Made by a program: the position numbers and the translations under genes. A stretch of DNA of 48,497 bases from Candidatus Bathyarchaeia archaeon (GTDB lineage Archaea > Thermoproteota > Bathyarchaeia > Bathyarchaeales > Bathycorpusculaceae). Shown one piece after another: positions 19,454 through 47,649 of this stretch. Position 1 is the stretch's first letter. Every line of letters begins with the position of its first letter. The stretch spans positions 1 to 48,497 of the forward strand of contig JAVZLS010000012.1 in assembly GCA_038883715.1 (NCBI GenBank), read 5' to 3'. The notes under the pieces are model-generated. The model made no database searches. It saw only the letters and a list, made by a program, of their open reading frames with translations, and had not been told where the DNA came from.

Positions 19454-20161
19454 ACGCTAAAGAAATCATCTTTAACGTTTTCAACATCATTAATCTTAGC
19501 GGCTAATTTGCTGGTTCTTGTATTAATTCCTAACGTAAAAGGTGTTTTGAACGTGGGCGTACCCGCACCCAATTTTACGTTGGTCGACGCTATAAGTGGT
19601 AACCCAATTAGTTTGTCTGGCTGTGCTGGCAAAATAGTGGTTATCGACTTTTTTGCAACCTGGTGCATGCCATGTAGACAAGCGATTGATTCTGAGCTTG
19701 TACCATTGTACAACCAATATTATGCCAATAACCCAAATGTTGTTTTCCTATCTATAGACATTTGGGAACCATCTATCACTCGCCAACAACTCATACAGTT
19801 TGCCGATGAACATAACATTGGCTGGCCTATTCTCATGGGGTCAAATTCAAATATAGACCGTGACTATAACATTGAGGGAGTGCCAACATTATACGTTGTA
19901 GATGGCAATGGAATAATTAGATGGTGTCATGTAGGGGCAACTCCAGGACTGGGTGAGGCTTTAAGAAGTCAAATCGAAAGTCTATTAGGGTCTTCAACGG
20001 GCGGCGATAGAGGTGGTGGTGTTGATTGGCGAATTTTAACAGTCGTTATTGTTATCATCGTGATTGTGGTTGTTGCAACTCTAATAGTGCTGCGTAAAAG
20101 AGTAAAGGCGCCCGCTCCAGCTCAGCTTCCGCCGCCTCCACCCCCTCCTCCGCCACCCTAA
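19454..20161 (+). CDS. TlpA/ResA-like thiol-disulfide oxidoreductase, exported, C-terminal TM and polyproline tail
   Basis: APNFTL, GKIVVIDFFATWCMPC, GVPTLYVVDGNG. Start placed at ACG 19454 behind AGGAGG; first standard start is TTG 19508. Confidence 0.85.
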   Translation, partial: TLKKSSLTFSTSLILAANLLVLVLIPNVKGVLNVGVPAPNFTLVDAISGNPISLSGCAGKIVVIDFFATWCMPCRQAIDSELVPLYNQYYANNPNVVFLSIDIWEPSITRQQLIQFADEHNIGWPILMGSNSNIDRDYNIEGVPTLYVVDGNGIIRWCHVGATPGLGEALRSQIESLLGSSTGGDRGGGVDWRILTVVIVIIVIVVVATLIVLRKRVKAPAPAQLPPPPPPPPPP

Positions 20162-20243: not shown

Positions 20244-21923
20244 TTGTTTGACATGGAAATACTGGAAAGGGTTAGGCGTGAAAAGGAGCGCTGGGAAAGG
20301 GAGACTGTGGCTAAAAGCCTTGAGAGACTTCCGGAGCGGGGCGAATTTTTAACAAGCTCTGACATACCAGTAAGCCGCCTCTACACACCAGCAGACATCG
20401 CCAATCTAGACTATTTTGGGGATTTAGGTTTTCCTGGCGAGTATCCCTTCACTCGTGGCGTTTATCCAACCATGTACCGTGCTCGTTTTTGGACTATGAG
20501 GCAGTATGCTGGCTTTGGCACCGCTGAGCAGACAAACCAGCGTTTCAAATACTTGTTAAGCCAAGGTCAGACAGGGTTAAGCGTGGCTTTTGACTTTCCA
20601 ACGCAGGTGGGTTATGATTGCGACCATCCCATGGCAAGGGGCGAAGTTGGCAAGGCTGGCGTGAGCGTTAGCACTTTGCGGGATATGGAAATAGTTTTTG
20701 AAGGCATACCCTTGGACAAAATTACAACTTCTATGACTATTAATGCGCCGGCGGCGGTTCTGCTCGCCATGTATATTGTTGTGGGCGAGAAGCATGGCGT
20801 TCCGCAGAGCGTGCTTGATGGCACTGTGCAGAATGACATTTTGAAGGAGTATGTTGCCAGAGGCATGTATATCTTTCCACCTAAGCCTTCCATGCGCCTA
20901 GTCACAGACATTTTCGAATATTGTGCCAAAAACGTGCCAAAGTGGAACACCATAAGCATAAGCGGCTACCACATCCGAGAGGCTGGAGCCACGGCGGTTC
21001 AAGAAATAGCCTTCACATTCGCCAATGCCATAGCCTATGTGCAAGCCGCCATAGACAGAGGTTTAGACGTTGACAAATTCGCTGGTAGGCTCTCGTTTTT
21101 CTTTGCGGCGCACAACAACTTGTTTGAGGAGGTTGCCAAGTTTAGGGCTGCTAGGCGTTTGTGGGCTAAAATAATGAGGGAACGTTTCGGTGCCAAAAAC
21201 CCGACCTCTTGGATGCTGCGCTTTCACACGCAGACTTCTGGGGTTTCGCTTACAGCCCAGCAGCCTCTAAACAATATTATCCGCGTAACCATTCAAGCCT
21301 TGGCAGCAGTTTTAGGTGGAACCCAGTCGCTGCATACAAACTCTTTTGATGAGGCTTATGCTTTGCCCAGCGAGCAAGCCGTAACCATAGCGCTTAGAAC
21401 CCAGCAGATAATAGCCTATGAGAGCGGTGTTGCAGACACTATAGACCCGCTTGGCGGCTCCTATTACGTGGAGTACTTGACAAACCAGATTGAGGAGAAA
21501 GCCACAAAATACATTGAGCAGATAGATGAGATGGGAGGGGCTGTTGCCGCCATAGAGAAGGGCTTCATGCAGAGGGAAATAATGGAAAGCGCCTACCACT
21601 ACCAGAAGGAGGTGGAAAGCAAAAAGCGCATAGTGGTCGGCATCAACGAGTTCATAAGCGAGGAGAAAACCCCAATCAAAATTTTGCGAATAAACCCAGA
21701 AATTGAAAAAACACTGATTAAACGCTTACAAGAGGTGAAAAGCCAAAGAAACAATGCCAAAGTCAGGGAAGCCCTAGACAGTTTGCGAAAAGCAGCAGAA
21801 AAGGAAAATGTAAACCTTATGCCCTTCATAATTCAAGCCGTCAAGGAATACGCCACCCTAGGCGAGATATGCGACACCCTCCGCCAAGTTTTCGGAGAGT
21901 ACAAGCCCCCATCCATATTCTAA
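20244..21923 (+). CDS. mcmA: Methylmalonyl-CoA mutase, large (substrate-binding) subunit
   Basis: [56 protein letters not shown]; no B12-binding domain (split type). Confidence 0.93.
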
Positions 21924-21925
21924 CT

Positions 21926-22486
21926 TTAGCCAATAACAAACAAGGGGTCGCCCTCATTCACGGAGGCGCCCTCTGAAACTAGAATCTCGCGGACTGTCCC
22001 AGCCACCGGCGCCGTAATCTCGTTTTCCATCTTCATGGCTTCCAAAATGCACAATACCTGCCCAGCCTTAACTTGTTCGCCCCTCCCAACCTTTATGGAT
22101 ATTATTTTTCCAGTCATGGGCGCCGTAACAGTCCCAGAAACCACTTGTTTAGGCTTCGGCACTCTCAGCGTCGGCGCTTGAAGGGCTTGTTCCATGACTG
22201 GTGAAACAGCCAACCGCGTCAAAGTGGGCGTTTTCAGCTCCGCTTTAAAAGATGCCCCTTCAACCTTAACCGTGAAAGGTTTTGTCTTGCTAATTTCCTG
22301 TAGAATCACGGCGTACATCTTATCGCCAATTTTTAATTGAAGTTGCTTTTCGGGATGAAGCTTGCCTTCTGGAACCTCAACATTGAAGGATTTTTCTCCA
22401 AGCTTGACCGTGAAGGTTTTTTCGTTAATTTTTGAAACTTCGACTCGCCATGGTTTTCCGTTTATGAAAATTTCGTAGGTTGACAT
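21926..22486 (-). CDS. Biotin carboxyl carrier protein 1
   Basis: APMTG, LEAMKMENE biotinylation motif; starts 1 bp after the carboxyltransferase stop. Confidence 0.92.
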   Translation of the reverse strand: MSTYEIFINGKPWRVEVSKINEKTFTVKLGEKSFNVEVPEGKLHPEKQLQLKIGDKMYAVILQEISKTKPFTVKVEGASFKAELKTPTLTRLAVSPVMEQALQAPTLRVPKPKQVVSGTVTAPMTGKIISIKVGRGEQVKAGQVLCILEAMKMENEITAPVAGTVREILVSEGASVNEGDPLFVIG

Positions 22487-22487
22487 T

Positions 22488-24032
22488 TTAAACACCATGC
22501 TCGGCTAGACTTTGCCTTCCAGCAAGAACCCAAGGCGAAACTCCACGCCTCACCCTTTGCAAGGTTAAGGCTTTAACCTCGCTTAAGCTTGCCATGTAAG
22601 CGGCTATTGCGGCGGAAACGGCTGCCACCTGCTCAAGCTCCGCCATTTTTTCTGGCGGTATGCTTGTTTTCGCTTCTTCTCTTTTGGCTTTCCTTTTCTT
22701 GAAGAATTCTGGGGCTATGGCTGGAAACAAGGCATACGTGAGCATGTCCTCCTCGCTTTCAATGTAGGGTTTAACATCCTCCGGAATCTTGTCCATGGCT
22801 GGTTCAAGAAGATCTGCTGGGCGGCAAGTTATGGGTTCCTCATCGCCAATAATCAGCCGCTTAACTTCCTCGTCTATTGGGGCTGGTGGGCGTCCATAAA
22901 ACCCTTTAACATAGTCTTTTATTTCCTTTGGCACTATGCTATAGCGTTTTCCAGACAGAACGTTGAGCACGGCTTGGATGCCAACGAGCTGACTTGTGGG
23001 TGTCACTAGCGGCGGGTAGCCAAGCTCTTTTCGAACCCTTGGAACCTCCTCTAGAACCTCCTTAAGCCTATGAACAGCGTTCTGCTCCCTTAACTGTTCG
23101 AGAAGGTTGGAGAACATTCCGCCGGGAATTTGGTGAACCATTATGGATGGGTCGACCTTTTCGGCTTTGGGGTCTATGAGCCCCAACGGGTCATAGTATT
23201 TTTCTCTAAGTTCTCTGAAGTATTCTGCAATCTCTTGGAGAAGTTCCATGTCAAGTCCTGGGTCGTAAGGCGTACCCTTCAGAGCAGCCACTACGGATTC
23301 TACTGGCGGCTGGGATGTGCCCCATGCCAATGGTGAGAAGGCGGTGTCTATTATGTCTACTCCGGCTTCGCATGCCCGCAGATATGTCATCATAGCCATC
23401 CCGCTGGTGCAGTGGCAATGCAGGTGCACTGGCAAGCCCACCTCTTTTTTTAGGGCGGTTATTAGTTCGTAGGCTGGTTGTGGCGCCAGCATTCCAGCCA
23501 TGTCCTTTATGCATATGGAGTCGCAGTCAAGCTCAGCCAGCTTCTTGGCGACATTCACGTAATATTCTATTGTGTGGACTGGGCTTATGGTGTAGCATAT
23601 AGTGCCCTGCGCGTGTTTGCCCACTTTTTTGACGGTTTTTATGGCGACTTCCATGTTGCGAACATCGTTTAAGGCGTCGAATACTCGGAATATGTCTATG
23701 CCGTTTTCAGCGGCTTTTTCAACAAATTTTATGACAACATCATCTGGGTAGTTCCTATAACCAACAACATTCTGTCCCCTTAAAAGCATCTGCAGTGGCG
23801 TGCGCTTTATGTGGCGTTTTAATTGGCGGATTCTTTCCCAAGGGTCTTCAGCCAAATAGCGTATGCAGACGTCGAAGGTGGCGCCTCCCCAAACCTCCAT
23901 GGAGAAAAAGCCAACACTGTCCATCTTTTCGGCTATGGGAAGCATTGATTCAGTGCGCATCCTAGTCGCCATCAACGACTGATGAGCGTCTCGAAACGTG
24001 GTGTCCGTAATCTTAACGGGTTTAGATGCCAT
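22488..24032 (-). CDS. Pyruvate/oxaloacetate carboxyltransferase (OadA / PycB / transcarboxylase 5S-like) without a fused biotinyl domain
   Basis: RDAHQSL, EVWGGATFD, LQMLLRGQN, IKDMAG, HCH, HQIPGGM, PPLVTPTSQ. Confidence 0.92.
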   Translation of the reverse strand: MASKPVKITDTTFRDAHQSLMATRMRTESMLPIAEKMDSVGFFSMEVWGGATFDVCIRYLAEDPWERIRQLKRHIKRTPLQMLLRGQNVVGYRNYPDDVVIKFVEKAAENGIDIFRVFDALNDVRNMEVAIKTVKKVGKHAQGTICYTISPVHTIEYYVNVAKKLAELDCDSICIKDMAGMLAPQPAYELITALKKEVGLPVHLHCHCTSGMAMMTYLRACEAGVDIIDTAFSPLAWGTSQPPVESVVAALKGTPYDPGLDMELLQEIAEYFRELREKYYDPLGLIDPKAEKVDPSIMVHQIPGGMFSNLLEQLREQNAVHRLKEVLEEVPRVRKELGYPPLVTPTSQLVGIQAVLNVLSGKRYSIVPKEIKDYVKGFYGRPPAPIDEEVKRLIIGDEEPITCRPADLLEPAMDKIPEDVKPYIESEEDMLTYALFPAIAPEFFKKRKAKREEAKTSIPPEKMAELEQVAAVSAAIAAYMASLSEVKALTLQRVRRGVSPWVLAGRQSLAEHGV

Positions 24033-24103
24033 AAACCGTTGCCTCTCGAGGATTTTGAAGAATTGTTAAGCCACTATTAATCTGTAATGGTCTGTTTCAC
24101 GGA

Positions 24104-24948
24104 TTATTTGCATCCATATTTCCTTTCAAGCCATCGCACAGCGAATTCGACAAAGTCTGCAGCATCGAAAAGGTAAGATTGAGCCTCTCCAACCTTTCCG
24201 ATGCGTCCCCTGCTAGAGGCGAAATATTCCCTTGGTATAGCCTCAAAATATTCACGCGCGTTCGGCAGAACATACCCACAAGTGTCAAATTCCTCAACTT
24301 CAACCCAAACTTTTTTACCTTACCTTCTTGCAAAATTGGCACTTTGTAGCGTATGACCAGTTTGTTAGGCACTTTGGCCAAGTGTTCCGCGTAATGCAAA
24401 AGCGTAATCGAGCCGAAAGGCGCCCCGAGAAGCAGAACCTTGCCCTTAGCCTCGCATAGCTTGGCGAATGGCGAACCCGGCCCGTAACCATATTGGAGTG
24501 GATGGTTTTCCGTGAGCCACTTTGCCTTTGCTCCGACAGCCACACATGAAGCCTCTGGATTGCCACTTCTGTAAGCGCCCGGCCATGTGCGCAAATATTC
24601 AGTTAGTATGCTCCACCTTCTGTGCGCCCGAGAAGTGGCTGGGTTAAAGGGAGGAAACTCCTCGAGGTATGCCCTTTGCCACTCCTCTGGCCATTCTTTG
24701 AACACGTATGGTGCTTCCCAAGGGGAGTCTTCCCAGCCCACATACATCATCAAAGTTCCCTCCTCGCCTAGAACTTCCAGCAAGGCTTGGATGACAACGT
24801 CTGGGCCGCCCACAACCCACCCCACAGCCTTAACAGAGGCATGAAGCATCAACGTGTCTCCTGAGGCAACTCCCAGCCTTTTCAAGTCAGCCACTAGTCT
24901 GCTCTTTGTTATTGGAGGGATTCCGCTTTTTACTGGCTGCTCTCCCAT
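24104..24948 (-). pseudogene. AAC(3)/YokD-family N-acetyltransferase, frameshifted by a 5-bp duplication
   Basis: GDTLMLHASVKAVG, GKVLLLGA, ITLLHYAE. Removing one ACCTT of the tandem at 24317-24326 restores KKVWVEVEEFD...GKVGEAQSYLFDA...WLE to TAA at 24104-24106. Confidence 0.82.
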
Positions 24949-24959
24949 CTTTCAACACT

Positions 24960-26528
24960 TTATAACGGGATGTTTGCATGCTTTTTGGACGGCCTAGCCT
25001 CGCGTTTTGTCATAAGCATTTCAAGAGCGCTAATCAGTTTTGGCCTTGTTTCAGCCGGCTCTATAACCTCGTCAATGTAGCCTTTCTGGGCAGCCACATA
25101 TGGGTTGGCAAACTTCCGCCGGTAATCACTAACGAGTTCTAGACGCTTCTGCTCCGGGTCTGGGGCTTCGGCGATTTCCTTCCGGAAGATTATGTTTATG
25201 GCGCCTTGCGGTCCCATGACGGCTATTTCGGCTGTTGGCCAAGCATAGTTTATGTCTCCGCCAGAATGCTTCGAGCCCATAACGTCGTAGGCTCCGCCAT
25301 AAGCCTTGCGGAGTATAACTGTTATTTTTGGGACTGTGGCTTCGCAGTAAGCGTACAACAGTTTTGAGCCGTGGCGTATTATTCCGCCGTGTTCCTGCTC
25401 TATGCCCGGCAAGAAGCCCGGCACATCCACGAAGGTTATTATTGGTATGTTGAAGCAGTCGCAGAAGCGAACGAATCTTCCGGCTTTAGTAGAGGAGTTT
25501 ATGTCAAGCGCCCCAGCATAATAGGCGGGCTGGTTTGCCACTATACCAACAGAATGCCCATTCAACCTTGCGAAGCCTACGACTATGTTTGGCGCCCATA
25601 AGGGCTGAACTTCAAAGAATTCGCCGTTGTCCACGATGCGGTGGATTATCTCTTTAACGTCGTAGGGTTTGTCTGGGTCATCTGGCATTATGCGGGATAG
25701 CTCCTCTTCTGTGCGGTTTGGGTCGTCACCGGTCTCCACATAGGGCGGGTCTTCAAGGTAGTTGCTGGGCAAATAGCTCAAAAGCCTCTTAATTATTTGG
25801 ATGCAGTGCTCCTCGTCCTTGGCTATGAAGTGGGCTACGCCGCTGGTTTGGCTATGCACCATGGCTCCGCCAAGCTCTTCAAAGGTAACTTCTTGTCCAA
25901 GCACTGTTTTGACAACATCTGGCCCGGTTATGAACATGTAGCTTGTCTTATCCACCATGATTATGAAGTCTGTTAGGGCTGGCGAATACACGGCGCCGCC
26001 TGCACATGGTCCCATAATGGCTGATATTTGTGGTATGACACCGGAAGCCATCACGTTGCGGAAGAATATGTCGCCATAGCCCGCAAGGCTTGCAACGCCC
26101 TCTTGGATACGTGCCCCACCTGAATCGTTTAAGCCTATAACTGGCGCGCCTGTTTTCATCGCTAAGTCCATAAGTTTGCAGACTTTCCTTGCGAACATTT
26201 CACCCAATGAGCCGCCAAAAACTGTAAAATCTTGCGAGAAGACGAAGACTAGTCTTCCGTCTATTGTTCCGTAGCCCGTTACGACGCCGTCGCCCAAATA
26301 TTTGCGTTCAGCCATGCCGAAGTCTGTGCACTGGTGAACCACAAACTGGTCAAGCTCGTTGAAGCTTCCCGGGTCTAGGAGGAGGTCTATGCGTTCTCTT
26401 GCAGTCAGTTTACCCTTAGCGTGCTGCTCCTCGATTCTTTTTAGTCCGCCGCCAAGTTTGGCTTGCTCCCTCATTTCCCTTAAGCGTCTAATCTTCTCCT
26501 CAACAGTTGGCTCCCTAACCTCAACCAT
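24960..26528 (-). CDS. pccB: Acyl-CoA carboxyltransferase (PccB / MmdA / transcarboxylase 12S-like)
   Basis: [70 protein letters not shown]; likely ATG at 26528. Confidence 0.92.
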
Positions 26529-26657
26529 AACTAAACACCTTCCAGTCTGCTGGAATATGTAGGCGCAATCAGTATTTAGGATATATGCAGCCACTCTTTG
26601 GAAAACTATATCCCCTTTGACAACCATTAATCAAGAGTCGAAAAGGAACGTGCATAA

Positions 26658-27431
26658 ATGATAGAGCAAAACCCTGTTATCCAGACGCTGCTAAGCCACA
26701 AGTCCATAAGAAAGTATAGGGCGGAAATGCCACCAGAAAATGTTATACGCACAATCGTTAGGGCTGGACAGCAGGCGCCTTTCGCTTCACAAGCCTACAG
26801 CATACTATTGTCGCGGAATAGGGAGCACCACCCATACAAGGCGCCGCTGCTTTTCACCATATGCGTCGACTACCACAAGTTCGAGAGGATTATGGAGAAG
26901 CGGGGCTGGAAAATAGTGACCAACGATTTGGCGCTGCTATTTTTCGGGATTCAAGACGTCGCCCTAATGGCAGAAAACATGGTTATAGCCGCCAGAAGCC
27001 TAGGCTTGGGAAGCTGCTTCCTAGGAAGCGCCATGTTCCAAGCAGAAAAAATAGCAGAAGAATACCACTTGCCGAAAAGGGTTTTCCCACTTGTGCAGCT
27101 TGTTATGGGCTACCCGGCTGAAGATCCCCTGCCAAGACCCAGATACCCAATAGAATTCACACTTTTCGAGGGCAAATATCCGGAACTGACAGACGAAATG
27201 GTTTCAGAAGCCATGAGGGTTATGGATGAAGGCTACTTGGCACAAGACTATTATAGGAGGTTAAAGGCGAAAATTCCGCTGGAAGATGGGCGTCCAGACC
27301 CATACACCTACGAAAATTATAGTTGGACAGAGCACATATGCAGAAAATGGGGACAATGGTTCCCGGACCCGAAAGGACTTTTAGAACAGCTGGAAAAACG
27401 CGGATTCCGAATCACGGGAAAGAAAGACTAA
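26658..27431 (+). CDS. Nitroreductase-family flavoprotein (NfsA-like)
   Basis: HKSIRKY, AGQQAP, AARSLGLGSCFLG, MGYP, RPR. Confidence 0.85.
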   Translation: MIEQNPVIQTLLSHKSIRKYRAEMPPENVIRTIVRAGQQAPFASQAYSILLSRNREHHPYKAPLLFTICVDYHKFERIMEKRGWKIVTNDLALLFFGIQDVALMAENMVIAARSLGLGSCFLGSAMFQAEKIAEEYHLPKRVFPLVQLVMGYPAEDPLPRPRYPIEFTLFEGKYPELTDEMVSEAMRVMDEGYLAQDYYRRLKAKIPLEDGRPDPYTYENYSWTEHICRKWGQWFPDPKGLLEQLEKRGFRITGKKD

Positions 27432-27478
27432 TGACATTTAATAGCTTCATATAGAATGTCTGATTGGGAGGGGAATTG

Positions 27479-28213
27479 ATGTGGTATAGGGATTTGTTTA
27501 GAGACAGATGGGCGAAATTCTGGGTAGAGGAATACCTTTCTGAGTTGATGGAAGATACGATGGATGATATAGAATTTCTTAGAACTGCCTTAAGGAAAGG
27601 AGTTACGTTGGATATGTGCTGTGGTCCCGGAAGACATTCAATACCCTTAAGTTCATATATGGATGTTGTAAGCTTCGATTTGAGCAGGGATTTCCTTTTG
27701 GCTATTAAAGATAGAAGTGGCGACAAGTCTCTACATCTGGTTCAAGGGGATATGAGGAAGCTACCTTTTAAAGACGAGTCCTTTGATAATGTGATAAACA
27801 TGCATACAAGTTTCGGCTACTTCTCTGATAAGGAAAACAAGCTCGTTCTGCAAGAGGTTTCTAGAATACTGAAGCCTGAAGGGCTCTTCATATTAGATAT
27901 TGCGAACGCCAAGTGGTTTCTTGGGAATTTTCGGGAAAGAGGATGGGACGAATCTGATAGCTTCTATGTTTTAGAGAAGCGTAATTTAGACTGGGAAACT
28001 AGAAGAATGGTGAGCCGATGGATTCTTATAGACAAGAAAGGAGGAAGCATAGACGAGTTGGTGGTTGACCATAGGCTTTACGATCTGAACGAGTTAAAGA
28101 ACCTGTTAGCACAGGTAAACCTTGAAATACTCAACGTTTTCGGCTCCTCTAAAAAGGAAAGATTCCATGAAATATTATCTAGGAGAATATTAATTATAGC
28201 CAAAAAACACTAA
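27479..28213 (+). CDS. Class I SAM-dependent methyltransferase
   Basis: LDMCCGPGRH, QGDMRKLPF..FDNVINMHTSFGYF, LKPEG. Confidence 0.9.
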   Translation: MWYRDLFRDRWAKFWVEEYLSELMEDTMDDIEFLRTALRKGVTLDMCCGPGRHSIPLSSYMDVVSFDLSRDFLLAIKDRSGDKSLHLVQGDMRKLPFKDESFDNVINMHTSFGYFSDKENKLVLQEVSRILKPEGLFILDIANAKWFLGNFRERGWDESDSFYVLEKRNLDWETRRMVSRWILIDKKGGSIDELVVDHRLYDLNELKNLLAQVNLEILNVFGSSKKERFHEILSRRILIIAKKH

Positions 28214-28275
28214 TTCGGATAAAAAAGGCAAAAAGGCACTTGCGAAAAGAAAGACAAGTTCTAAAACAGCCATTT

Positions 28276-29076
28276 TTAACGCCTCAATTTTATGGAGAGA
28301 TCTCCAACAAAAACACGTTTGACAGAGCCATTTTCAAGCTTTAAAACTAGAGCGCCGTCACGATCAACATCGGAGGCTATGCCTTCAAATCTTTCACCAT
28401 CACCACAAACTTCCACTCGGCAGCCTAGAAAATATGCGAAGCTTTTCCATTCCTTCAAAATTGGCGTGAATCCTTCTTTAAGGAAGATTTGATAAAGGTT
28501 GTCCATTTTCTCCAGCAAAGCCTTGAAAAGCTCTTCTAGGGAGATTTTTCTGCCTAAGGCTTTTTGGATGGAGGTTGCTGTTTCGCTAAGCTCTCTTGGA
28601 AATTCTTTTTCAACGTCTATGTTGGCGTTTACGCCTACGCCAATTATTGTGTAATCAACTTTTTCGCCTATGGTTTTCATTTCTGAGAGGATGCCGCAAA
28701 CCTTCCGCCCATTCACTAGGACATCGTTGGGCCATTTTGTTTCAACCTTTAAGCCAAATAATTCTCGTAGGGTTTCTGCAACGGCTAAGCCTGCCAAAAA
28801 CACGAGTTTGATGGTTTCCGGTGGCTTAAGCTTTGGCTTAAGAATTATTGAGAACCATAAGCCTCCTTTTGGCGAGAGCCATTTTCTGCCGGGTCTGCCG
28901 CGCCCAGAGGTTTGGGTTTCGGCTACGGCAACTGTGCCCTCTGGGGCGCCGAGTTCTGCCAGCTCCTTAGCCCAATCGTTGGTTGAGCCAACTTCATGGG
29001 CAAAGAAAATGTATTTCCCAATAAGCCTCGTTTTCAGCCCTTCTTGAAGCTTTTCCACTTTTATGTTTGTTGGCAA
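28276..29076 (-). CDS. birA: Biotin-protein ligase (no N-terminal HTH)
   Basis: STND, AETQTSGRGR, KWPND, KVCGIL, GVGVN. Start taken as TTG 29076, just after the MFS stop; the longer ORF-track N-terminus overlaps the MFS gene. Confidence 0.92.
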   Translation of the reverse strand: MPTNIKVEKLQEGLKTRLIGKYIFFAHEVGSTNDWAKELAELGAPEGTVAVAETQTSGRGRPGRKWLSPKGGLWFSIILKPKLKPPETIKLVFLAGLAVAETLRELFGLKVETKWPNDVLVNGRKVCGILSEMKTIGEKVDYTIIGVGVNANIDVEKEFPRELSETATSIQKALGRKISLEELFKALLEKMDNLYQIFLKEGFTPILKEWKSFAYFLGCRVEVCGDGERFEGIASDVDRDGALVLKLENGSVKRVFVGDLSIKLRR

Positions 29077-29078
29077 GG

Positions 29079-30200
29079 CTATTTCTCCCCATACAATGCG
29101 AAGGCGCCGATGTAGAAGACTGCGTATATTGTGGCTGCCAGAACAAAGGACGCTGTGAAGCCCCAGTTGGCGATTAGTATGCCGCTTAGGGCTAGGCTCG
29201 CCGACTCGCCCAAGTGGAGCCCCATCATAAGCAGGCCGATGTCGGTCCCATAAGACTCCTTTTCGCAAATTTTTGATAGTATTCCCTCTTGTCCCACACT
29301 GTTCATCCCCTCGGCGAAGCCAACAGCCACCACGAGGACGGCGGCGAGAATAGCGGGGGAAAACCCTAGGGGGATTAAAAGAGCCGAATAGATTATTCCG
29401 CTTGTTAGAATGAGTCTTTTCACGTCGCGATATTTGGAGAAGATGTACGAGGACAAGCCTGCCGTAAAAATCATGGTGCCAAAAACCAGTCCAACATTTT
29501 CTGGGGAAAAGCCAACATTGTTTAGGAAACATGGTATGACATATCCGGAGCGGAAGCCAAAGGCCAAGCCCATTGTAAAGAATAGGAATAGGAAAATTTT
29601 GAACTTTCGCCCCTTCTTCCTAAAGTCAAGGAAACGTAAGGCTTGTCCCGTGGTGAATTCGCCCTTCCTTTCATCAGTTAATGTGAAGGAGAGGAGAAAT
29701 CCCAGAACGCCTAAAAGGGCGCATAAAATCATCGTCCCCTCATATAGGACTAGTGCCGCTAGAAATCCGGCTATGAGGCTGCCGACGGCGTAGGCAACAT
29801 AAACAACCGTTCTTAGGTTGACAAGGATCCTCCAGTTCCCCTTGCTTCTTTCTAGAATATAGGCCCTATTTACAGCCCATATGGCGCCCTCCTTTGTTCC
29901 CTCTGCAACTTTTCCGAAGAGGAACTCCATTGGAGTGTGGGCAAAATAGTAGATGAGGCTTGATATGGTGCCTAAGAATCCGTTCGCCATGAAGAAGGGC
30001 TTCCTTCCAAAAAAGTCTGAAAGGGTGGCGAAGAACATTCTGCCAAGCTGCATTATTAGGGGCATAGCTGCGAAAACAAAGCCTATAAGGACTATGTCTA
30101 TGCGTCTCTCCTCCATTATTAAGGGGATTACGACTCCTAGGATGCCGCTGGTAAAGGAGTGGAAAGACTGGATGACGAGAACCGTTTTTAAGGGACGCAG
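29079..30200 (-). CDS. MFS transporter
   Basis: Multiple TM segments, LSDFFGRK motif A; the frame extends upstream of ATG 30116 through a TM1-like stretch to CTG at 30200. Confidence 0.82.
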   Translation of the reverse strand: MRPLKTVLVIQSFHSFTSGILGVVIPLIMEERRIDIVLIGFVFAAMPLIMQLGRMFFATLSDFFGRKPFFMANGFLGTISSLIYYFAHTPMEFLFGKVAEGTKEGAIWAVNRAYILERSKGNWRILVNLRTVVYVAYAVGSLIAGFLAALVLYEGTMILCALLGVLGFLLSFTLTDERKGEFTTGQALRFLDFRKKGRKFKIFLFLFFTMGLAFGFRSGYVIPCFLNNVGFSPENVGLVFGTMIFTAGLSSYIFSKYRDVKRLILTSGIIYSALLIPLGFSPAILAAVLVVAVGFAEGMNSVGQEGILSKICEKESYGTDIGLLMMGLHLGESASLALSGILIANWGFTASFVLAATIYAVFYIGAFALYGEK

Positions 30201-30249
30201 AAGGCTTCAGCCCCCGACAAGTGCCCAGTGAAACTTCGATTTGTGCGCT

Positions 30250-30663
30250 TTAAACCATCACAAGTTCCAATAGAACACCCTTTGTGCTTTTCGGGTGGAC
30301 GAAGGCTATCTTCTTCCCTTCAGCACCAGTTCTAGGCTTTTCATCAACAAGCATAACGCCCTTATTTTTAAGCTCCTCTAAAGCCCTTTTGATATCATCC
30401 ACTTTTACGGCTATGTGGTGGATTCCTTCACCTCGGCTTTCAAGGAATTTTGCAACTGGACTATCGCTGCCCAAAGGTTCTAAAAGCTCAATTTGGGTTT
30501 CGCCACCAGCGGATAGGAAGGCCACCTTAACCTTCCGCTCTGGTAGGACGTGAACGCTTAAAAGCTTGAAGCCAAGGATATCACGGTAAACGCTAATAGC
30601 CTCATCCAGATTTTTAACAGCCACGCCAACATGGTCCATACCAGTAAACATGCGCCATCCCAA
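30250..30663 (-). CDS. mce: Methylmalonyl-CoA epimerase
   Basis: [36 protein letters not shown]; cluster context. Confidence 0.92.
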
Positions 30664-30718
30664 CTCCAGCTCGCTGCTTGAGGGTTAAATGCAATTGCCC
30701 CTCATTATAAAAAAGTTT

Positions 30719-31258
30719 CTAGGCGATAACTGCCAAAACATCTCCCTTGTTCACAACAGCCCCTTCAGAGACTAGGACTTCCTTAACAACACCGTCTTTT
30801 GGCGCTGCAACCTCATTCGCCATCTTCATAGCTTCCAAAATGCATACGCAATCTCCTTTGGAGACTTTCTGTCCAACGCCAACCTTTAATGCTATAACTC
30901 TTCCTGCTATGGGAGCTAAAACGGCATCCTTCCCAACGATAAGGCTAATGGCAGGCTTTTTAGAAAGTGCCGGAAGCGGCTCAATTTTTGAAGCTTCCGG
31001 TTTAAAGGTTGGGGTGGGATATTGAACTTCGAAGGTTTTCCCGCCAATTTTAACCTGCATAATGCTTCGGGGAAGCTTCAAAAGTTCTGCCGAAAATTTT
31101 TCGCCGTTTATCTCTAATGAAAATTTTCCACCGCCAGAGTTGGCAAATTTAACCTCAACTGTTTTTCCGTTAACATCAACTAGGAAAGTGTTATTCTCCC
31201 TTTTCAAAACCTTAACATTGTACGCTTTATTGTTCACTAAAACTTCGTGGATCTTCAA
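30719..31258 (-). CDS. Biotin carboxyl carrier protein 2
   Basis: APIAG, LEAMKMANE; 4-bp overlap with the biotin carboxylase stop. Confidence 0.92.
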   Translation of the reverse strand: MKIHEVLVNNKAYNVKVLKRENNTFLVDVNGKTVEVKFANSGGGKFSLEINGEKFSAELLKLPRSIMQVKIGGKTFEVQYPTPTFKPEASKIEPLPALSKKPAISLIVGKDAVLAPIAGRVIALKVGVGQKVSKGDCVCILEAMKMANEVAAPKDGVVKEVLVSEGAVVNKGDVLAVIA

Positions 31259-32766
31259 AGGGTTCGCCTCAGCCCCCTACCTCTGCCGGCAAGCTTCCAA
31301 AGGGAAACTCTCCCTTGTTCACGTCTTGGAATTAGTGCCTTAACTTTGGCTTCAGCTGTTTGATTTGCCAGAAAAGCGGTAAGGGCGGCTATCTCCTCAT
31401 CCGTTAAGGCTTTCTTTGGAAGAAGCTTTTCAATCCTTTCGTCGACAAAGTTTATGTGGATATCTCCTCTTAAGAAATCTTCATCCTCCATTATCCTCTT
31501 ATGCAGTGGGATTGTGGTTTTAACTCCCTCTATCACAAATTCGTCTAAGGCGTTACGCGCCCTCTTTATGGCTTCTAAGCGGCTTAAACCCCAGACAGCA
31601 AGCTTGGCAATCAAGGGGTCATAGAAGACTGACACCGTGTAGCCAGCGTAAAGGTGGGTGTCAACCCTAACTCCAGGACCGCCTGGCAAACGCAAGTTTG
31701 TGACTGTTCCCGGTGATGGCGCAAAGTTTTCGTAGGGGTCTTCAGCGTTTATGCGGCAGTTTATGGCATGTCCACGGATTTTCACGTCCCTCTGGCTGTA
31801 GGCAAGTTTTTCGCCAGCCGCAATTCTTATTTGCTCTTTGACTATGTCTATGCCCGTCACCATTTCAGTTATCAAGTGCTCCACTTGAAGCCTAGTGTTC
31901 ATCTCGAGAAAGTAGTAGTTGCCGTTTTGGTCTACAAGGAACTCAACAGTTCCAGCATTAACATAGTTTATGGCTTTCACAATGTTTATGGCTGAGGCGC
32001 CCATCTCTTTCCGCAGTTCCGCAGTCACGAAGGGCAAAGGCGTCTCCTCAATGAGTTTCTGGTATCGCCTTTGGATTGAGCATTCCCTTTCGCCTAGGTG
32101 AATGACCCTTCCCTTCTTATCTGCTAGTATTTGGAATTCTATGTGCCTAGCCCTTGGGAGAAACTTTTCAACGTAGATTTCGCGGCTTCCGAAGGAGGAT
32201 TCCGCCTCCAAGGCGGCGGTTTCTAAAACTTGGAGCATCTCACCATCGTTTTTTACAAAGCGCATGCCCTTCCCGCCGCCCCCGTAAACAGCCTTAACCA
32301 AAACTGGATAACCAACCTTCTCGGCTATTTCTAAGGCTTCTTCCGGGCTTTTGGCGGGTTTTAGGCTTCCGGGGATAACTGGCACTCCAGCTTCCGCCGC
32401 AGCCTTTCGAGCCTCAACCTTATTCCCCATCCGCCTCAAAACTTCGGCTGGAGGGCCAACAAACTCTAAACCATTTTTTGCACATGCTTCTGCAAAGGCT
32501 GGAATTTGGGATAGAAAGCCATATCCTGGATGGATGGCTTCACAACCAGATTTTTTGGCTATTTCAATTATTTTCTCTATGTTTAGGTAGCTTTGGCTAG
32601 GCTCTGCTGCGCCTATAAAATAGCATTCATCGGCGTATTGAACATGAAGCGAGTCAGCGTCAGCCTCCGAGTAGACAGCAACCGTCTTAACACCGAGTTC
32701 CCGGCATGCCCTAATAACCCTTAAAGCGATTTCTCCCCTATTGGCAACTAGAACCTTGTTAAACAT
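31255..32766 (-). CDS. accC: Biotin carboxylase
   Basis: KVLVANRGEIA, IHPGYGFLS, GGGGKGMR, ERECSIQRR, EMNTRLQVEH, RINAED, PGGPGVRVD. Confidence 0.94.
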   Translation of the reverse strand: MFNKVLVANRGEIALRVIRACRELGVKTVAVYSEADADSLHVQYADECYFIGAAEPSQSYLNIEKIIEIAKKSGCEAIHPGYGFLSQIPAFAEACAKNGLEFVGPPAEVLRRMGNKVEARKAAAEAGVPVIPGSLKPAKSPEEALEIAEKVGYPVLVKAVYGGGGKGMRFVKNDGEMLQVLETAALEAESSFGSREIYVEKFLPRARHIEFQILADKKGRVIHLGERECSIQRRYQKLIEETPLPFVTAELRKEMGASAINIVKAINYVNAGTVEFLVDQNGNYYFLEMNTRLQVEHLITEMVTGIDIVKEQIRIAAGEKLAYSQRDVKIRGHAINCRINAEDPYENFAPSPGTVTNLRLPGGPGVRVDTHLYAGYTVSVFYDPLIAKLAVWGLSRLEAIKRARNALDEFVIEGVKTTIPLHKRIMEDEDFLRGDIHINFVDERIEKLLPKKALTDEEIAALTAFLANQTAEAKVKALIPRREQGRVSLWKLAGRGRGLRRTL

Positions 32767-32901: not shown

Positions 32902-34614
32902 ATGGTATCATTAATGGAGAAGCACACCCATGACATAGTCATTATTGGCGCAGGCTTGGCTGGTTTGAGGGCTGCCGTTGCAGCCGCAGAGTTCAACAGC
33001 AAACTGGACATAGCGGTTATTTCAAAGCTTCACCCTTTGAGGTCGCATTCTGTTTGTGCGCAAGGTGGAACAGCTGCTGCCATGCGAGAAAAGGACTCCT
33101 TTGATCTGCACGCCTTTGACACCGTGAAAGGCGCCGATTATCTAGCAGACCAAGATGTCGTGGAATTCTTTGTTAGGCAAGCTCCCAAAGAAATTATTTT
33201 GATGGAGCATTGGGGTTGTCCATGGAGCCGCACACTAGACGGGAAAATAGACCAGCGCCCCTTTGGCGGGCACACATATCCAAGGGCTTGCTTCGCGGCT
33301 GACATGACTGGTTTTCACGAGATGCACACGCTTTATGGGAAAGCCACAACCTACGATAACGTGAAGTTTTATGACGAATGGTTTGTCACATCGCTAATAG
33401 TTGAAGATGATGCCGTAGTGGGCTTAACAGCCATAGAGCTGAAAACAGGCGAGATGCACGCCTTTAAGGCTAAGGCTGTTGTGATGGCTACTGGCGGACA
33501 CGAGCGCATATACGAGTTTACTACCTTCTCCCACACAACGACGGGCGACGGCATGGCGATGGCTTACCGGGCTGGCGCGCCCCTTGAAGATATGGAGTTT
33601 GTTCAGTTCCACCCAACAGGTTTGGTGCCGTCGGGCGTGCTGATCACCGAGGGCGCGCGGGGTGAGGGCGGCTACCTATATAATGCCCTTGGAGAGCGCT
33701 TCATGAAGCGCTATGCCCCGGAAAAGATGGAGTTGGCTCCCCGCGACGTGGTTTCAAGGGCTGAGCAAACAGAAATCCTCGAAGGAAGAGCCTTCCAAGG
33801 CCCTTATGGACCATACATTGCTTTGGACCTTAGACACTTGGGCGAGGAGAAGATTAACGAGAGGCTGCCGCTCATAAGGGATGTTGCCATAAAGCTTGGC
33901 GGAGTCGACCCCGTCAAGGAGCCTATACCGATTCGTCCGGCAGCCCATTATTCGATGGGCGGGATTAGAGCCAACATAAGGACCGAAACATCCATTAAGG
34001 GTTTGTATGCCGCTGGCGAATGTTCATGTTTAAGCCTCCACGGCGCCAACAGACTTGGAACAAATTCTACGGCTGAATGTCTAGTTTTTGGAGCCGTCGC
34101 CGGGGAGGAAGCGGCAAAGTACGCCATGTCTGCCAGTTTCCATGAATTTCCAGAGGGGAAGGCTTTAGCCGAAGAGAAGCGGGTTTTTGATGGAATCCTT
34201 GGAAGCGAAGGCAGCGAGAGAGTCCCGCAGCTGAGGGATGAGATGAGGAGGCTTATGAACACCAAAGTTTGGATTTTCAGAACAGGCGAAGAGCTGAAAA
34301 GCGCCTTAAAAGAGATTAGAACGCTCAAGGAACGCTTTAAACACATAAAGGTTGAGGATAAGGGCAAAACCTTCAACACAGGGTTTACGGCTGCCCTCCA
34401 GCTTGACTTTATGTTGGACTTGGCTGAAGTCACAATTATAAGCGCGCTGGCAAGAACAGAGTCACGGGGTGCCCATTCAAGGCTTGACTATCCAAACCGC
34501 GACGACGAGAAGTGGCTTGTCCACACGCTGGCATATTATACCGTGGATGGACCGAGACTAGACTACATTCCAGTTACGATTACGAAGTGGCAGCCCACCG
34601 CCAGAAAGTATTAG
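32902..34614 (+). CDS. sdhA: Succinate dehydrogenase / fumarate reductase flavoprotein
   Basis: [16 protein letters not shown] (FAD-linking His), [46 protein letters not shown]. Confidence 0.92.
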
Positions 34615-34620
34615 GAGGGT

Positions 34621-36192
34621 TTGCGCATGAATGGAGAAGTTGTTAAGGTTGTTGAATTCAGAATTCGCAGATACAACCCAGACACGAATAGGAGTTACAT
34701 TTCCACGTTTAAGGTGCCAATTCGCCGTGGAACAACAATCCTAGACGTGCTTAACTATGTTAAGGAGAATTTTGATGAGACCCTTACTTTTAGGCACTCT
34801 TGCAGAATGGGAATCTGCGGAAGCTGCGCAGTAAATGTTAATGGCAAGCCGATGCTGGCGTGTTACACGCAGGTTTTAGATTTAAACGCCGACACAGTAA
34901 CCATCGAGCCTCTGTCAAATCTTCCAGTCATTAAGGATTTGGTGGTTGACATACAGCCCTTCTTCCAAAACTTCAGAAAAATCAAAACAGTGCTCATCAA
35001 GCCGGCGGAAGCCTTCAAAAAGCCCGTAGAGTTTACACAGTCGCCTGAAGACCTTAAAAAGTACTGGGATTTGACACTTTGCACAAAATGTTCAATTTGT
35101 TATTCTGCTTGTCCAGCAGCCATTGACGAGAGGTTTCTTGGGCCTTCGGCTTTGACAGCCAATTACAGGTTTGTTGCTGATTCGCGGGATGAGGGCTTGG
35201 ATGAAAGGCTTAAGCCTATGGCGGATAATGTTTGGCTCTGCACTTCATGCAATTCTTGCACGCTTTTCTGTCCAAAACTCGTTAACTGTGCGAACTCTGT
35301 GGTTGAGGACCGCAGTCTCTTGGTAGAAATGGGAGCCATCCCAAGAACAGTTAAGGATGTTCTTGAAAGTGTTATGAAATATCACAATCCAATGGGAACT
35401 CATCAGAGCAGACGGATGGCTTGGGCTGAAGGTTTAAACGTTAAAACCTATCCAAATGTTACAAGGGCTGATGTTCTATTTTTTGTGTGCTGTTCAACCG
35501 CCTATGACGTTAGGAATAGGGAAATAGCCAGAACGATGGCAACAATTTTTGACAGGCTTGGCGTTGATTATGCCACTTTAGGCGAGGAGGAGTGGTGCTG
35601 TGGAGACCACATACTACGAATGGGCGAGAAGGGTTTGTTTGAAATGCTTGCAGAACATAATGTGGCGGTGTTCCAGAAGTTTAATGCAGACGGCATTGTG
35701 ACGGTTTCGCCCCACTGCTACAATGCCTTCAAAAACGACAAGCCCTACAAGGATTTAGCGCTAAACATTCAGCACTATACGCAATTTTTGGCTGAAGCCC
35801 TAGAAAAGGGCAAACTTAAACCCACAAAACCCTATAACAAGAGGGTTGTCTACCACGACCCATGCTTCTTGGGCAAACGAAACCAAATCTACGAAGAGCC
35901 GAGGCAAATTCTACAATCAATAAAAGGTTTAGAGCTTATCGAGATGAAGCGCACGAGGGAAGCCAGCTTCTGCTGCGGCGGCGGAGCCGGAAGAGTCTGG
36001 ACAGAGGAAGCCGAACCGGAAAAGAGGCCATGTGTAAACCGTGTTAAAGAGGCTTTAGAACTTGGTGCAGACGTGATAGCTGTGGCTTGTCCTTTCTGTG
36101 TGACAACCCTTGAAGACGCCACAAAAGTTTTGGAAGCGGAAGAAAAAGTAGCCGTCAGAGACATCCTCGAAATCTTAAGAGAAACTCTCTAG
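34621..36192 (+). CDS. SdhB/FrdB Fe-S subunit fused to two CCG domains (TfrB/HdrD-like)
   Basis: SCRMGICGSC, CTKCSICYSAC, CTSCNSCTLFC, then WCCGD..SPHC and YHDPC..FCCGGG..ACPFC. Confidence 0.88.
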   Translation: MRMNGEVVKVVEFRIRRYNPDTNRSYISTFKVPIRRGTTILDVLNYVKENFDETLTFRHSCRMGICGSCAVNVNGKPMLACYTQVLDLNADTVTIEPLSNLPVIKDLVVDIQPFFQNFRKIKTVLIKPAEAFKKPVEFTQSPEDLKKYWDLTLCTKCSICYSACPAAIDERFLGPSALTANYRFVADSRDEGLDERLKPMADNVWLCTSCNSCTLFCPKLVNCANSVVEDRSLLVEMGAIPRTVKDVLESVMKYHNPMGTHQSRRMAWAEGLNVKTYPNVTRADVLFFVCCSTAYDVRNREIARTMATIFDRLGVDYATLGEEEWCCGDHILRMGEKGLFEMLAEHNVAVFQKFNADGIVTVSPHCYNAFKNDKPYKDLALNIQHYTQFLAEALEKGKLKPTKPYNKRVVYHDPCFLGKRNQIYEEPRQILQSIKGLELIEMKRTREASFCCGGGAGRVWTEEAEPEKRPCVNRVKEALELGADVIAVACPFCVTTLEDATKVLEAEEKVAVRDILEILRETL

Positions 36193-36446: not shown

Positions 36447-36638
36447 TGCGACGACCATCCGCGAGAGACCAATGTCAATCTTGGAGATTAGCCTTTTCGT
36501 TCGGCGAGGACGTCCTCTATAACTGTAGCCGTATTTAATGTTTTGGAGTCTGAAAGGTTGATAGATACCTTAATATATTAACTTCATAGGTTATTTAATT
36601 CTCATTAGAAGTAATTGAGGTTTGGAGGAAAGGTTGCA

Positions 36639-38501: not shown

Positions 38502-38520
38502 CAGAATGGAGGTATGGTGA

Positions 38521-39030
38521 ATGGTTAAGATTCATGAGAGAAAATTTGTTTCAGCCGATCCTGACAAGTGTGTTGGCTGCCAGGTCTGCGAGTACATTTG
38601 CGCTTGGACCAAGGAGAAGGCTTTCAACCCGTTAAAGTCACGGATACGGGTTGTTAGGCTTAACCCGCTGGTGAACATTTCTATTACTTGTAGACTTTGT
38701 GAGGACCCGCCTTGTGTTGCCGCTTGCCCAAGGGACGCCTTAACCCAGTCTGAGGAGAATGGCACAATAATCGTGGATGAGGATAAGTGCAATGGCTGCG
38801 GATGGTGCATTGAGGCTTGCGATTATGGGGCGGTTTCGCTTCATCCTGAGAAAAAGGTGGTTTTTATCTGCGACTTGTGCAAGGACAAGCCTGACGGGCC
38901 CCAGTGTGTTAAGTGGTGTCCAGAGGAAGCCTTAGACCTTGTCACGGCTGATGTTTTGGCTCAGAAAGCCCGTATAACTGCTACTAAGAAGCTTTTCCAA
39001 GAAGCCTTGAAAGTGGCTCCGCCGGCTTAA
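38521..39030 (+). CDS. 4x[4Fe-4S] ferredoxin-like subunit (AOR partner)
   Basis: CVGCQVCEYIC, CRLCEDPPCVAACP, CNGCGWCIEAC, CDLC..PQCVKWCP. Confidence 0.92.
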   Translation: MVKIHERKFVSADPDKCVGCQVCEYICAWTKEKAFNPLKSRIRVVRLNPLVNISITCRLCEDPPCVAACPRDALTQSEENGTIIVDEDKCNGCGWCIEACDYGAVSLHPEKKVVFICDLCKDKPDGPQCVKWCPEEALDLVTADVLAQKARITATKKLFQEALKVAPPA

Positions 39031-44668: not shown

Positions 44669-45160
44669 TCATGAGAGGACAGCCAACAAAACCTCCACAA
44701 TTTTCTGCGCTGCAGCCTCAACCTCCCCAGACAAGCCTTCCCCAAAATCCGTTTCTTTAGGCTCTATCAATAACAAAGCTATTTTTGCGCCTAACATTGT
44801 GGCAAGATATTCACAGAAAACCCGAAGGGGAAGCATATGCGTCGAAATAGCCGGAAAAACTCGAAGGTGCTCGGGCTTAACAAGCCTACACTCGCCGGGC
44901 TCCAAACCCATGACGGCGGCGTCGATAAGCAGCACATGTGAAGGCTTAAAGTCAGCTATTTCCTGAAGATAACTTTCAGGAACAGTTTCACACTCAATCA
45001 GCAAAACCTTGTCAGAAACTTTCCCTTGCAAGTCGCGGACAACTTTCACGCCGACAAAATCATCCATACGGATAGGGCTGCCAATACCAGCAACAACAAC
45101 CCTCACAGCGCCGGAAAACCAATCCCTCAACTTCTTCTCAAAAGAACTTTCCAACGACAA
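44669..45160 (-). CDS. hycI: [NiFe]-hydrogenase maturation endopeptidase (HycI-like)
   Basis: GIGSPIRMDDFVG, ETVPE, IDAA, STH; downstream of mvhA. Confidence 0.9.
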   Translation of the reverse strand: MSLESSFEKKLRDWFSGAVRVVVAGIGSPIRMDDFVGVKVVRDLQGKVSDKVLLIECETVPESYLQEIADFKPSHVLLIDAAVMGLEPGECRLVKPEHLRVFPAISTHMLPLRVFCEYLATMLGAKIALLLIEPKETDFGEGLSGEVEAAAQKIVEVLLAVLS

Positions 45161-45201
45161 AAGCTCTTCTCCAAAAATAGAAAGGAAGGGAAGTTAAGGC
45201 T

Positions 45202-47636: not shown

Positions 47637-47649
47637 ATTCGTATCCCAC

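Follow-up and report, generated by a model that had tools for sequence, protein, structure and literature searches.

A C-terminal adaptor shared by a 5S-like carboxyltransferase and a biotin carboxylase in a Bathyarchaeia genome, with a proposed role in coupling two carrier modules to one acyl-CoA carboxyltransferase

The 48,497-nucleotide stretch analysed here (contig JAVZLS010000012.1 of assembly GCA_038883715.1, Candidatus Bathyarchaeia archaeon; hereafter the window) encodes two different biotin-dependent enzymes, a 5S/OadA/PycB-like pyruvate:oxaloacetate carboxyltransferase and the biotin carboxylase AccC, which end in homologous C-terminal tails. Judged from its sequence, this tail represents, in fused form, a small adaptor that other organisms have as a separate subunit or as the soluble part terminating an OadG/MmdD-like membrane protein. 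Each of the two enzymes is paired with its own biotin carboxyl carrier protein (BCCP), and one PccB-type acyl-CoA carboxyltransferase is encoded beside them. We think it reasonably probable that the window specifies two carrier modules for a single PccB, in which the tail helix would sit in the barrel of the cognate BCCP, the first module would act as a transcarboxylase and the second would act as a carboxylase.

All of the genes concerned lie on the reverse strand. The 5S-like subunit (22488..24032; 514 residues; Pfam HMGL-like and PYC_OADA; no fused BCCP) bears its tail at approximately 22491..22664, and its gene overlaps by 11 nt the start of the gene for BCCP1 (21926..22498; 190 residues as an open reading frame, ORF, with a probable start at 22486). 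In BCCP1 a long N-domain (22202..22486) and a linker precede the biotinyl domain (Biotin_lipoyl, 85 bits). The PccB/MmdA/12S-type carboxyltransferase (24960..26528; Carboxyl_trans, PF01039, 702.8 bits) has 522 residues when counted from Met34 of the ORF at 24960-26627; the PccB proteins of relatives align from residue 34 or 35 of this ORF onward. The AccC gene (31255..32766; 503 residues; Biotin_carb_N, CPSase_L_D2 and Biotin_carb_C; 652.7 bits against TIGR00514 accC, above the cut-off of 626.5) encodes its tail at approximately 31258..31431 and overlaps by 4 nt the start of BCCP2 (30719..31258; 179 residues), a paralogue of BCCP1 with the same long N-domain. A preliminary description of this DNA had placed homologous tails on these two enzymes, each directly followed by its own BCCP, and had reported a single acyl-CoA carboxyltransferase and no OadB/MmdB membrane subunit; all of these observations were borne out. 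By tblastn, the whole assembly (41 contigs, 90.3% complete) holds a single copy each of the PccB-type carboxyltransferase, AccC and the 5S-like gene, alongside the two BCCPs. The tail is present in this genome in exactly two copies, and a family search for OAD_beta (PF03977) returned nothing from the window or from the assembly.

In a single BLASTP comparison the two tails, of about 50 residues, are identical at 20 of 47 positions (43%), with one gap and an E-value of 2e-7. Across an alignment of 17 sequences, comprising the 5S-like and AccC tails and their relatives, one Trp, one Ala and one Arg are invariant, while a second Ala, a Glu and the closing Arg of W.LAGR occur in at least 90% of rows. 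As this core is conserved in both protein families across relatives, the similarity is not accidental; chance resemblance was rejected on the E-value together with the conserved core. From its N-terminal end, the core comprises an acidic residue, an Ala-rich amphipathic stretch of the form ..AA[LIV]xxA[LIV]Axx.., a basic loop, often KAVIPxR, and SxWx[LV][AS]GR, which in the window's 5S-like subunit reads SPWVLAGRQ. The Trp-LAGR segment that follows the Ala-rich helix is the most conserved part. When the 5S tail was modelled alone with AlphaFold2 on its alignment (mean predicted local distance difference test, pLDDT, of 77.8), residues 4-29 were predicted to form a helix (pLDDT ~90), followed by a loop and a short helix at residues 44-56 that contains Trp-LAGR.

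The 5S tail is conserved in 10 relatives, and the AccC tail in related AccC proteins. Strong matches to the tail were obtained in 10 of 201 sampled Bathyarchaeia genomes, all within the taxonomic order of the window, and a 401-genome sample of the phylum yielded four weak matches outside the class: a free form (G451), a membrane-anchored form (G344) and two AccC forms (G235 and G484). AccC proteins of another family of the phylum bear the tail in AccC-BCCP-PccB operons (L065 and L066). A scan of genome contigs for SPWVLAGR[QK], a narrow pattern that is blind to diverged tails outside the class, returned 31 loci. Bathyarchaeia account for 29 of these; of the other two, one is a 2.3-kb contig binned as Krumholzibacteriaceae, and the second, in an Acidimicrobiaceae contig, is out of frame and fortuitous. 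Nothing beyond close relatives in the Bathyarchaeia or fragments was reached by word-indexed protein searches with the tails; a hidden Markov model (HMM) of the two tails found 14 matches, mostly gene fragments, in a representative library, and the best score from the ESM Atlas (0.78) serves as a lead only. A search of the PDB with the AccC tail gave insignificant matches only. When the 5S tail was used, the C-terminus of the propionibacterial 5S subunit aligned on the strength of the conserved helix that precedes the tail and not of the tail itself.

The same core is also found outside the two enzymes. A free ORF of 49 residues containing it lies between PccB and a short BCCP, which AccC then follows (L063), and free proteins of 62-90 residues with the core occur in metagenome contigs (17 loci returned, eight inspected). 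Among those inspected, the small protein follows a PccB-like gene and precedes a 5S-like one in six; in another a BCCP gene comes between it and the 5S-like gene, again after PccB; and in one the tail is fused to the 5S-like protein. When aligned with hhalign, the free small proteins matched the 5S tails at 97.2% probability (E 4.4e-11). Two of the inspected loci (L094 and L095) carry a PccB-like gene, a free adaptor and a 5S-like protein of 627-663 residues; the 663-residue protein of L095 ends in a Biotin_lipoyl domain, according to a Pfam scan of that locus only. These loci look like bacterial-type transcarboxylase operons, and their small protein is unannotated by Pfam and NCBIfam. The anchored form is represented in other Thermoproteota by proteins of 108 and 117 residues (L064/L101 and L012), each with an N-terminal membrane helix and the tail core at its soluble C-terminal end, and each followed by a short BCCP and OadB. 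The two tails of the window are without a membrane segment, their maximum 19-residue hydropathy being 1.3 and 0.74 against 2.6 in the anchored forms.

In comparisons with the OadG model (NF003004), the free proteins align only to the last ~25 positions (58-83 of 86, E ~0.01). This enterobacterial model ends with an Ala-rich helix and has no counterpart of the W.LAGR segment. The tail would act in the manner of the epsilon, gamma and delta adaptors and is visibly related to archaeal OadG-like proteins, and it falls outside the curated families PF13822, PF04277 and NF003004. The preliminary assignment of the tail to the epsilon/delta/PccX-type adaptors is thus upheld in so far as the free and the OadG-like anchored forms share its motif, and not upheld as regards the curated epsilon and gamma families, which miss it.

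The carriers offer a second line of evidence, the probable homology of their N-domains to BT barrels, a point which the preliminary description did not contain. BCCP1 and BCCP2 are 35% identical over their full length, N-domain included. Searched alone, the N-domain of BCCP2 matches PCC_BT (PF18140), the BT domain of propionyl-CoA carboxylase (PCC), with 24.5 bits, above the cut-off of 23.5, over profile positions 35-114 of 126. By analogy with the published domain order, the first ~34 positions left unmatched presumably correspond to the leading helix and hook. The first and second halves of the BCCP N-domain are duplicates of one another (hhalign 97.4%, E 1.5e-11), and BCCP2 aligns to the BT and BCCP region of AccA3 and human PCC alpha. 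For short BCCPs of other lineages, the alignment to the long ones starts no earlier than residue ~45-71 of the latter (45-55 in seven of the eight found), so that the short forms would have one four-strand unit. The long N-domains are read as duplicated four-strand units, probably homologous to the barrel of the PCC BT domain.

Published structures describe how such helices and barrels meet. In the two-subunit pyruvate carboxylase (PC), the Ala-rich C-terminal helix of the biotin carboxylase (BC, alpha) subunit is reported to fill a barrel made of two four-stranded sheets from two subunits that combine carboxyltransferase (CT) and BCCP, and deleting this helix or adding charge to it abolishes the holoenzyme (PMC5059739). 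The helix of AccE5 is described as inserting in the hairpin barrel of AccA3, with the C-terminal part of AccE5 binding the CT hexamer (PMC13612425), and the C-terminal helix of OadG as binding the association domain of OadA (PMC7274780). The same PC report presents the PCC BT domain as helix, hook and a barrel of eight strands, placed after the catalytic domain and ahead of the BCCP (PMC5059739); a further account has this domain reaching the N-CT domain of the beta subunit through its hook and a small helix (PMC10148081).

Drawing on these systems, we propose the following assembly. Module 1 would consist of the 5S-like carboxyltransferase and BCCP1, module 2 of AccC and BCCP2, and one acyl-CoA carboxyltransferase would serve both. 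The Ala-rich helix of each tail would insert, one to one, into the eight-stranded barrel of the duplicated N-domain of the cognate BCCP. Helix and barrel, contributed by two polypeptides, would in this way rebuild the BT, BT-like or association domain that holds biotin enzymes together, with the gene boundary falling at what would be the hook-barrel junction of PCC alpha. The short helix with the invariant Trp and LAGR is a candidate contact to the PccB hexamer. In combination with PccB, module 1 would be an ATP-independent methylmalonyl-CoA:pyruvate transcarboxylase and module 2 an ATP-dependent propionyl/acetyl-CoA carboxylase of the usual archaeal acyl-CoA type. The surrounding genes encode a route of mutase, epimerase and fumarate reductase, in which both activities would take part.

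Such a build would share features with several known enzymes. In the PC of M. flagellatus (PDB 5ks8), too, a catalytic subunit ends in an Ala-rich helix and strand units precede the BCCP. There, however, BC is the only subunit with the helix, and each of two beta subunits contributes one sheet (alpha1:beta2), whereas here BC and CT both bear a helix, the two units belong to a single chain in each BCCP, and the tail continues into the conserved W.LAGR helix. Gamma/delta (OadG/MmdD) and epsilon (AccE/PccE) subunits similarly use a short Ala-rich helix for the strand domain beside the BCCP and another part for a partner subunit, a division of labour that the tails here would share by analogy. Sequence similarity to these subunits is weak but directional, archaeal anchored and free forms having the core motif in common; the element here differs in that it does not stand alone and instead forms the C-terminus of two distinct enzymes. 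The BT domain of PCC alpha, to part of which the BCCP2 N-domain corresponds, would here be split over two genes after the helix and hook, BC carrying one such attachment and a 5S-type CT the other.

By the same analogies, the BCCP N-domain barrels are the likeliest direct partner of the tail helix. A doubtful but possible alternative is that the tails do nothing further: they would only tether each enzyme to its own BCCP, as a split BT or association domain, and would be silent on a common PccB core, PccB being reached by swinging biotinyl domains or through other surfaces. The published partner of Ala-rich helices of this kind is indeed the strand domain next to the BCCP, the BCCP N-domains are probable homologues of the BT barrel without its helix, and translational coupling joins each gene with a tail to the gene of its own BCCP, all of which speaks for a simple tether. 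The case for an additional contact between tail and PccB is circumstantial. Against mere tethering stand the high conservation of Trp-LAGR, which exceeds that of all other parts of the tail, its absence from the enterobacterial OadG model, and the position of free adaptor genes directly behind PccB-like genes in eight loci (L063 and seven of the eight metagenome loci inspected); with AccE5, moreover, a two-part adaptor is already known to bind the CT hexamer as well. Complex prediction for PccB, the BCCP1 N-domain with linker and the 5S tail gave scores of 0.68, 0.74 and 0.74, which fell to 0.00 and 0.00 with unrelated proteins in place of the tail. Since a score of 0.67 was obtained with an unrelated protein in place of PccB, the score is not specific to PccB, and the prediction is counted neither for nor against binding.

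The proposed activity of module 1 can be set against the gene content of relatives. The ten tail-bearing genomes are metagenome-assembled genomes (MAGs), 94-100% complete, the assembly of the window's genome being 90.3% complete. Both tails are present in seven of the ten, and only the 5S tail in three (G072, G184 and G118; 97-100% complete). The latter three have PccB and one BCCP, which adjoins a 5S-like gene with intact tail; neither an AccC protein query nor Biotin_carb_C (PF02785) detected a biotin carboxylase in them. OAD_beta was found in none of the ten genomes (that of the window and nine relatives) by a search that was positive in four of five other Thermoproteota and in control genomes. 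Where a 5S-type and a 12S-type CT occur with one carrier, and with neither a carboxylase nor a decarboxylase pump, carboxyl transfer between methylmalonyl-CoA and pyruvate is the only known biotin chemistry left. The gene content of the relatives devoid of BC and OadB thus supports an ATP-independent methylmalonyl-CoA:pyruvate transcarboxylase, the role which the preliminary description had suggested for the 5S-like subunit, BCCP1 and PccB.

PccB lies upstream of the 5S-like gene in the window's genome, G184, G124, G062 and G118, and the location of the 5S-like/BCCP1 pair beside the mutase gene is conserved, as is the adjacency of mutase and BCCP1. The spacing between PccB and the 5S-like gene differs among relatives (~350 nt in G124, ~1.7 kb in G184). 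The order AccC-BCCP2-epimerase-BirA is also kept, and AccC and BCCP2 are present or absent together: they are a second, facultative module. In one relative (G008, C4:22689-25538) the AccC frame is interrupted, its pieces covering residues 51-363 and 385-501, with a 161-residue open frame around the tail. Decay of the BC gene or a fault in the assembly would account for this; if real, it would mark a fourth lineage losing the BC module.

These distributions also bear on a second alternative, which we regard as unlikely: AccC and the 5S-like subunit would mainly form a two-subunit PC of the archaeal PycA/PycB type, PccB and AccC an ordinary acyl-CoA carboxylase, and there would be no transcarboxylase. 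PycB is indeed the best NCBIfam match of the 5S-like protein (818.6 bits against a cut-off of 402), and in the PDB this protein matches PC beta (5ks8, E 1.4e-169), the transcarboxylase 5S subunit (1rqb, E 8.8e-145) and also OadA (2nx9). Sources name the 5S-like subunit in these genomes either 'oxaloacetate decarboxylase alpha' or 'pyruvate carboxylase B'; a search with the full-length protein listed at least 120 matches at 80% identity or more, among which every name bearing an organism is of Bathyarchaeia type. PC alpha is known to end in an Ala-rich helix, archaeal PycA being described with a longer extension (PMC5059739), and a search of the window's genome for an archaeal-type phosphoenolpyruvate (PEP) carboxylase and a GTP-dependent PEP carboxykinase found neither. 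In three of the ten genomes, however, the 5S-like protein with its intact tail, BCCP1 and PccB are kept without a biotin carboxylase. Linkage of the 5S-like gene is with PccB and the mutase gene and not with AccC, the subunit has a helix and a BCCP of its own, so that the helix of AccC is unneeded, and its BCCP is not fused to the CT. The BC-less relatives rule out that AccC and the OadA-like subunit are simply a PC, the competing explanation named in the preliminary description. AccC feeding the 5S-like subunit, and so providing PC activity, may nevertheless be needed in the window's genome as well. Highly improbable, and rejected, is a third reading in which the 5S-like protein and PccB are soluble parts of Na+-pumping oxaloacetate or methylmalonyl-CoA decarboxylases whose membrane beta subunit escaped detection: in its favour, the OadG-like proteins encoded next to OadB in other Thermoproteota have a soluble end homologous to the tail, but OAD_beta is absent from all ten genomes, though detectable elsewhere by the same search, and the tails have no membrane segment.

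Several aspects of the data weigh against the proposed scheme of two modules and one PccB. Firstly, the insertion of helix into barrel is modelled on homology to other systems. The N-domain of BCCP1, read as two tandem BT-barrel-like four-strand units, reached 19.0 bits with PCC_BT (profile positions 33-119 of 126), under the cut-off of 23.5; its AlphaFold2 model, although eight-stranded, has a pLDDT of 47.9, too poor for a fold search, and a PDB profile search with it returned chance matches only (E of 0.08 or more). Secondly, curated families do not capture the tail. In the HMM comparison which the preliminary description had recommended, the AccC tail scored 24.2 bits with ACC_epsilon (PF13822; E 5.3e-5), narrowly missing the gathering cut-off of 25, and the 5S-like protein scored 16.6 bits with OAD_gamma (PF04277), for which the cut-off is 27; ACC_epsilon was matched at E of 0.01 or below by one of the 17 tails and missed by the other 16. 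Thirdly, equivalog-level assignments fall short, the 5S-like protein reaching 583.4 of the required 827 bits with the 5S model NF008984, and PccB 884.6 of 998.8 bits with TIGR01117 mmdA. Fourthly, the absences of BC and OadB rest on MAGs, and the ten genomes are kin, so that the counts are not independent. Finally, the lack of a detected archaeal PEP carboxylase or GTP-dependent carboxykinase in the window's genome makes AccC-driven carboxylation of pyruvate at the 5S-like site possible in addition to carboxyl transfer.

The two-module reading can be extended, in a form that we consider improbable, to a single PccB hexamer holding both kinds of module at once, docked through the same device of tail and BCCP barrel. 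Such a particle would be propionyl-CoA carboxylase, methylmalonyl-CoA:pyruvate transcarboxylase and, by handing carboxybiotin over from AccC to the 5S-like subunit, pyruvate carboxylase in one, and the ratio of modules would set the direction of carbon flow. The adaptor of helix and W.LAGR would then serve the transcarboxylases and methylmalonyl-CoA decarboxylases of both bacteria and archaea as their general element for docking to 12S.

Module 1 can be compared with the transcarboxylase of Propionibacterium freudenreichii (methylmalonyl-CoA carboxytransferase, EC 2.1.3.1; 12S/5S/1.3S). In both cases a 12S-type CT, a 5S-type CT and a carrier are encoded together, a biotin carboxylase is not needed, and the pathway setting is one of mutase, epimerase and fumarate reductase. 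The systems differ in that the 5S tail described here has no meaningful alignment to the propionibacterial 5S C-terminus, that the adaptor is here fused to the 5S-like subunit, and that the carrier is here a protein of 190 residues with a duplicated barrel domain. The 1.3S carrier of P. freudenreichii is much shorter. Nor is the enzyme, which the preliminary description called known mainly from propionibacteria, a speciality of that group, since a transcarboxylase is also assigned to syntrophic propionate oxidisers. The P. freudenreichii operon is reported to contain a fourth small coding sequence, annotated as the C-terminal part of 12S (PMC2909200), which may be the same adaptor element.

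The genes of the surrounding route and their neighbours are as follows. The methylmalonyl-CoA mutase large subunit (20244..21923, forward strand; MM_CoA_mutase, 795.5 bits) is convergent with BCCP1, and a paralogue of 66% identity to it is encoded on another contig of the same genome (C16:16998-18662). A methylmalonyl-CoA epimerase-like protein of the glyoxalase fold (30250..30663, reverse; Glyoxalase_4, 96.6 bits) is found directly downstream of BCCP2. Divergent from AccC lies a fumarate reductase pair, a TfrA-like flavoprotein and a TfrB-like Fe-S/CCG subunit (32902..36192, forward), for which an NCBIfam flavoprotein subfamily scored 899.6 bits and the TfrB model 325.5 bits, under its cut-off of 385. 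The biotin protein ligase BirA is located within 28276..29532 (reverse), where BPL_LplA_LipB and BPL_C cover residues 183-411 of a 418-residue ORF. The N-terminal ~180 residues of this ORF are without a family match and overlap a partial-looking ORF of the major facilitator superfamily (29079..30116, reverse), whose profile is matched from position 27 onward; the true start of BirA probably lies further downstream, the real gene being shorter at its 5' end, and the transporter ORF may be truncated. Between PccB and the 5S-like gene is an aminoglycoside 3-N-acetyltransferase-like ORF (24097..24948, reverse; Antibiotic_NAT, 198 bits). The match to the family profile stops at position 176 of 232, the last ~70 residues of the ORF look unrelated, and the reading frame may be disturbed near the 3' end.

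Further from the biotin enzymes, two full-length EF-2/EF-G-type GTPase genes stand side by side and divergent (6164-8380, reverse, and 8550-10811, forward), encoding proteins of 739 and 754 residues with the same five-domain make-up. An AhpC/TSA-thioredoxin-like protein (19508-20161, forward) has a hydrophobic segment near its C-terminus and ten prolines at its end. An aldehyde:ferredoxin oxidoreductase with a ferredoxin is encoded at 36615-39027, and the window ends (44672-48495, reverse) with a hydrogenase maturation protease, the large and small subunits of a NiFe hydrogenase and an Hdr-like protein with CCG domain.

The chemistry considered here is that of known enzymes, transcarboxylase and propionyl/acetyl-CoA carboxylase. 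Within the literature found, three features are new: the fusion of one adaptor to two different catalytic subunits in one genome, a 5S-type carboxyltransferase among them; carrier proteins with a duplicated, complete barrel domain; and a family of free small proteins in PccB/5S-like operons that is unnamed in Pfam and NCBIfam. A literature search that did not cover subscription journals found neither a structure of a transcarboxylase holoenzyme nor a transcarboxylase of Bathyarchaeia, and the manner in which the 12S, 5S and carrier subunits of transcarboxylases are held together has so far been poorly defined. An adaptor that occurs both free and anchored in the membrane, and also as a fusion either to BC or to a 5S-type CT, four forms in all, links the separate accounts of OadG/MmdD, AccE and the BT domain into one assembly principle, and provides a sequence handle for annotating such complexes. 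For the Bathyarchaeia, abundant sediment archaea with no cultured model, it argues for a succinate/propionate route of the Wood-Werkman type with ATP-free carboxyl transfer, and the relatives without BC point to an ATP-independent transcarboxylase of previously undescribed build.

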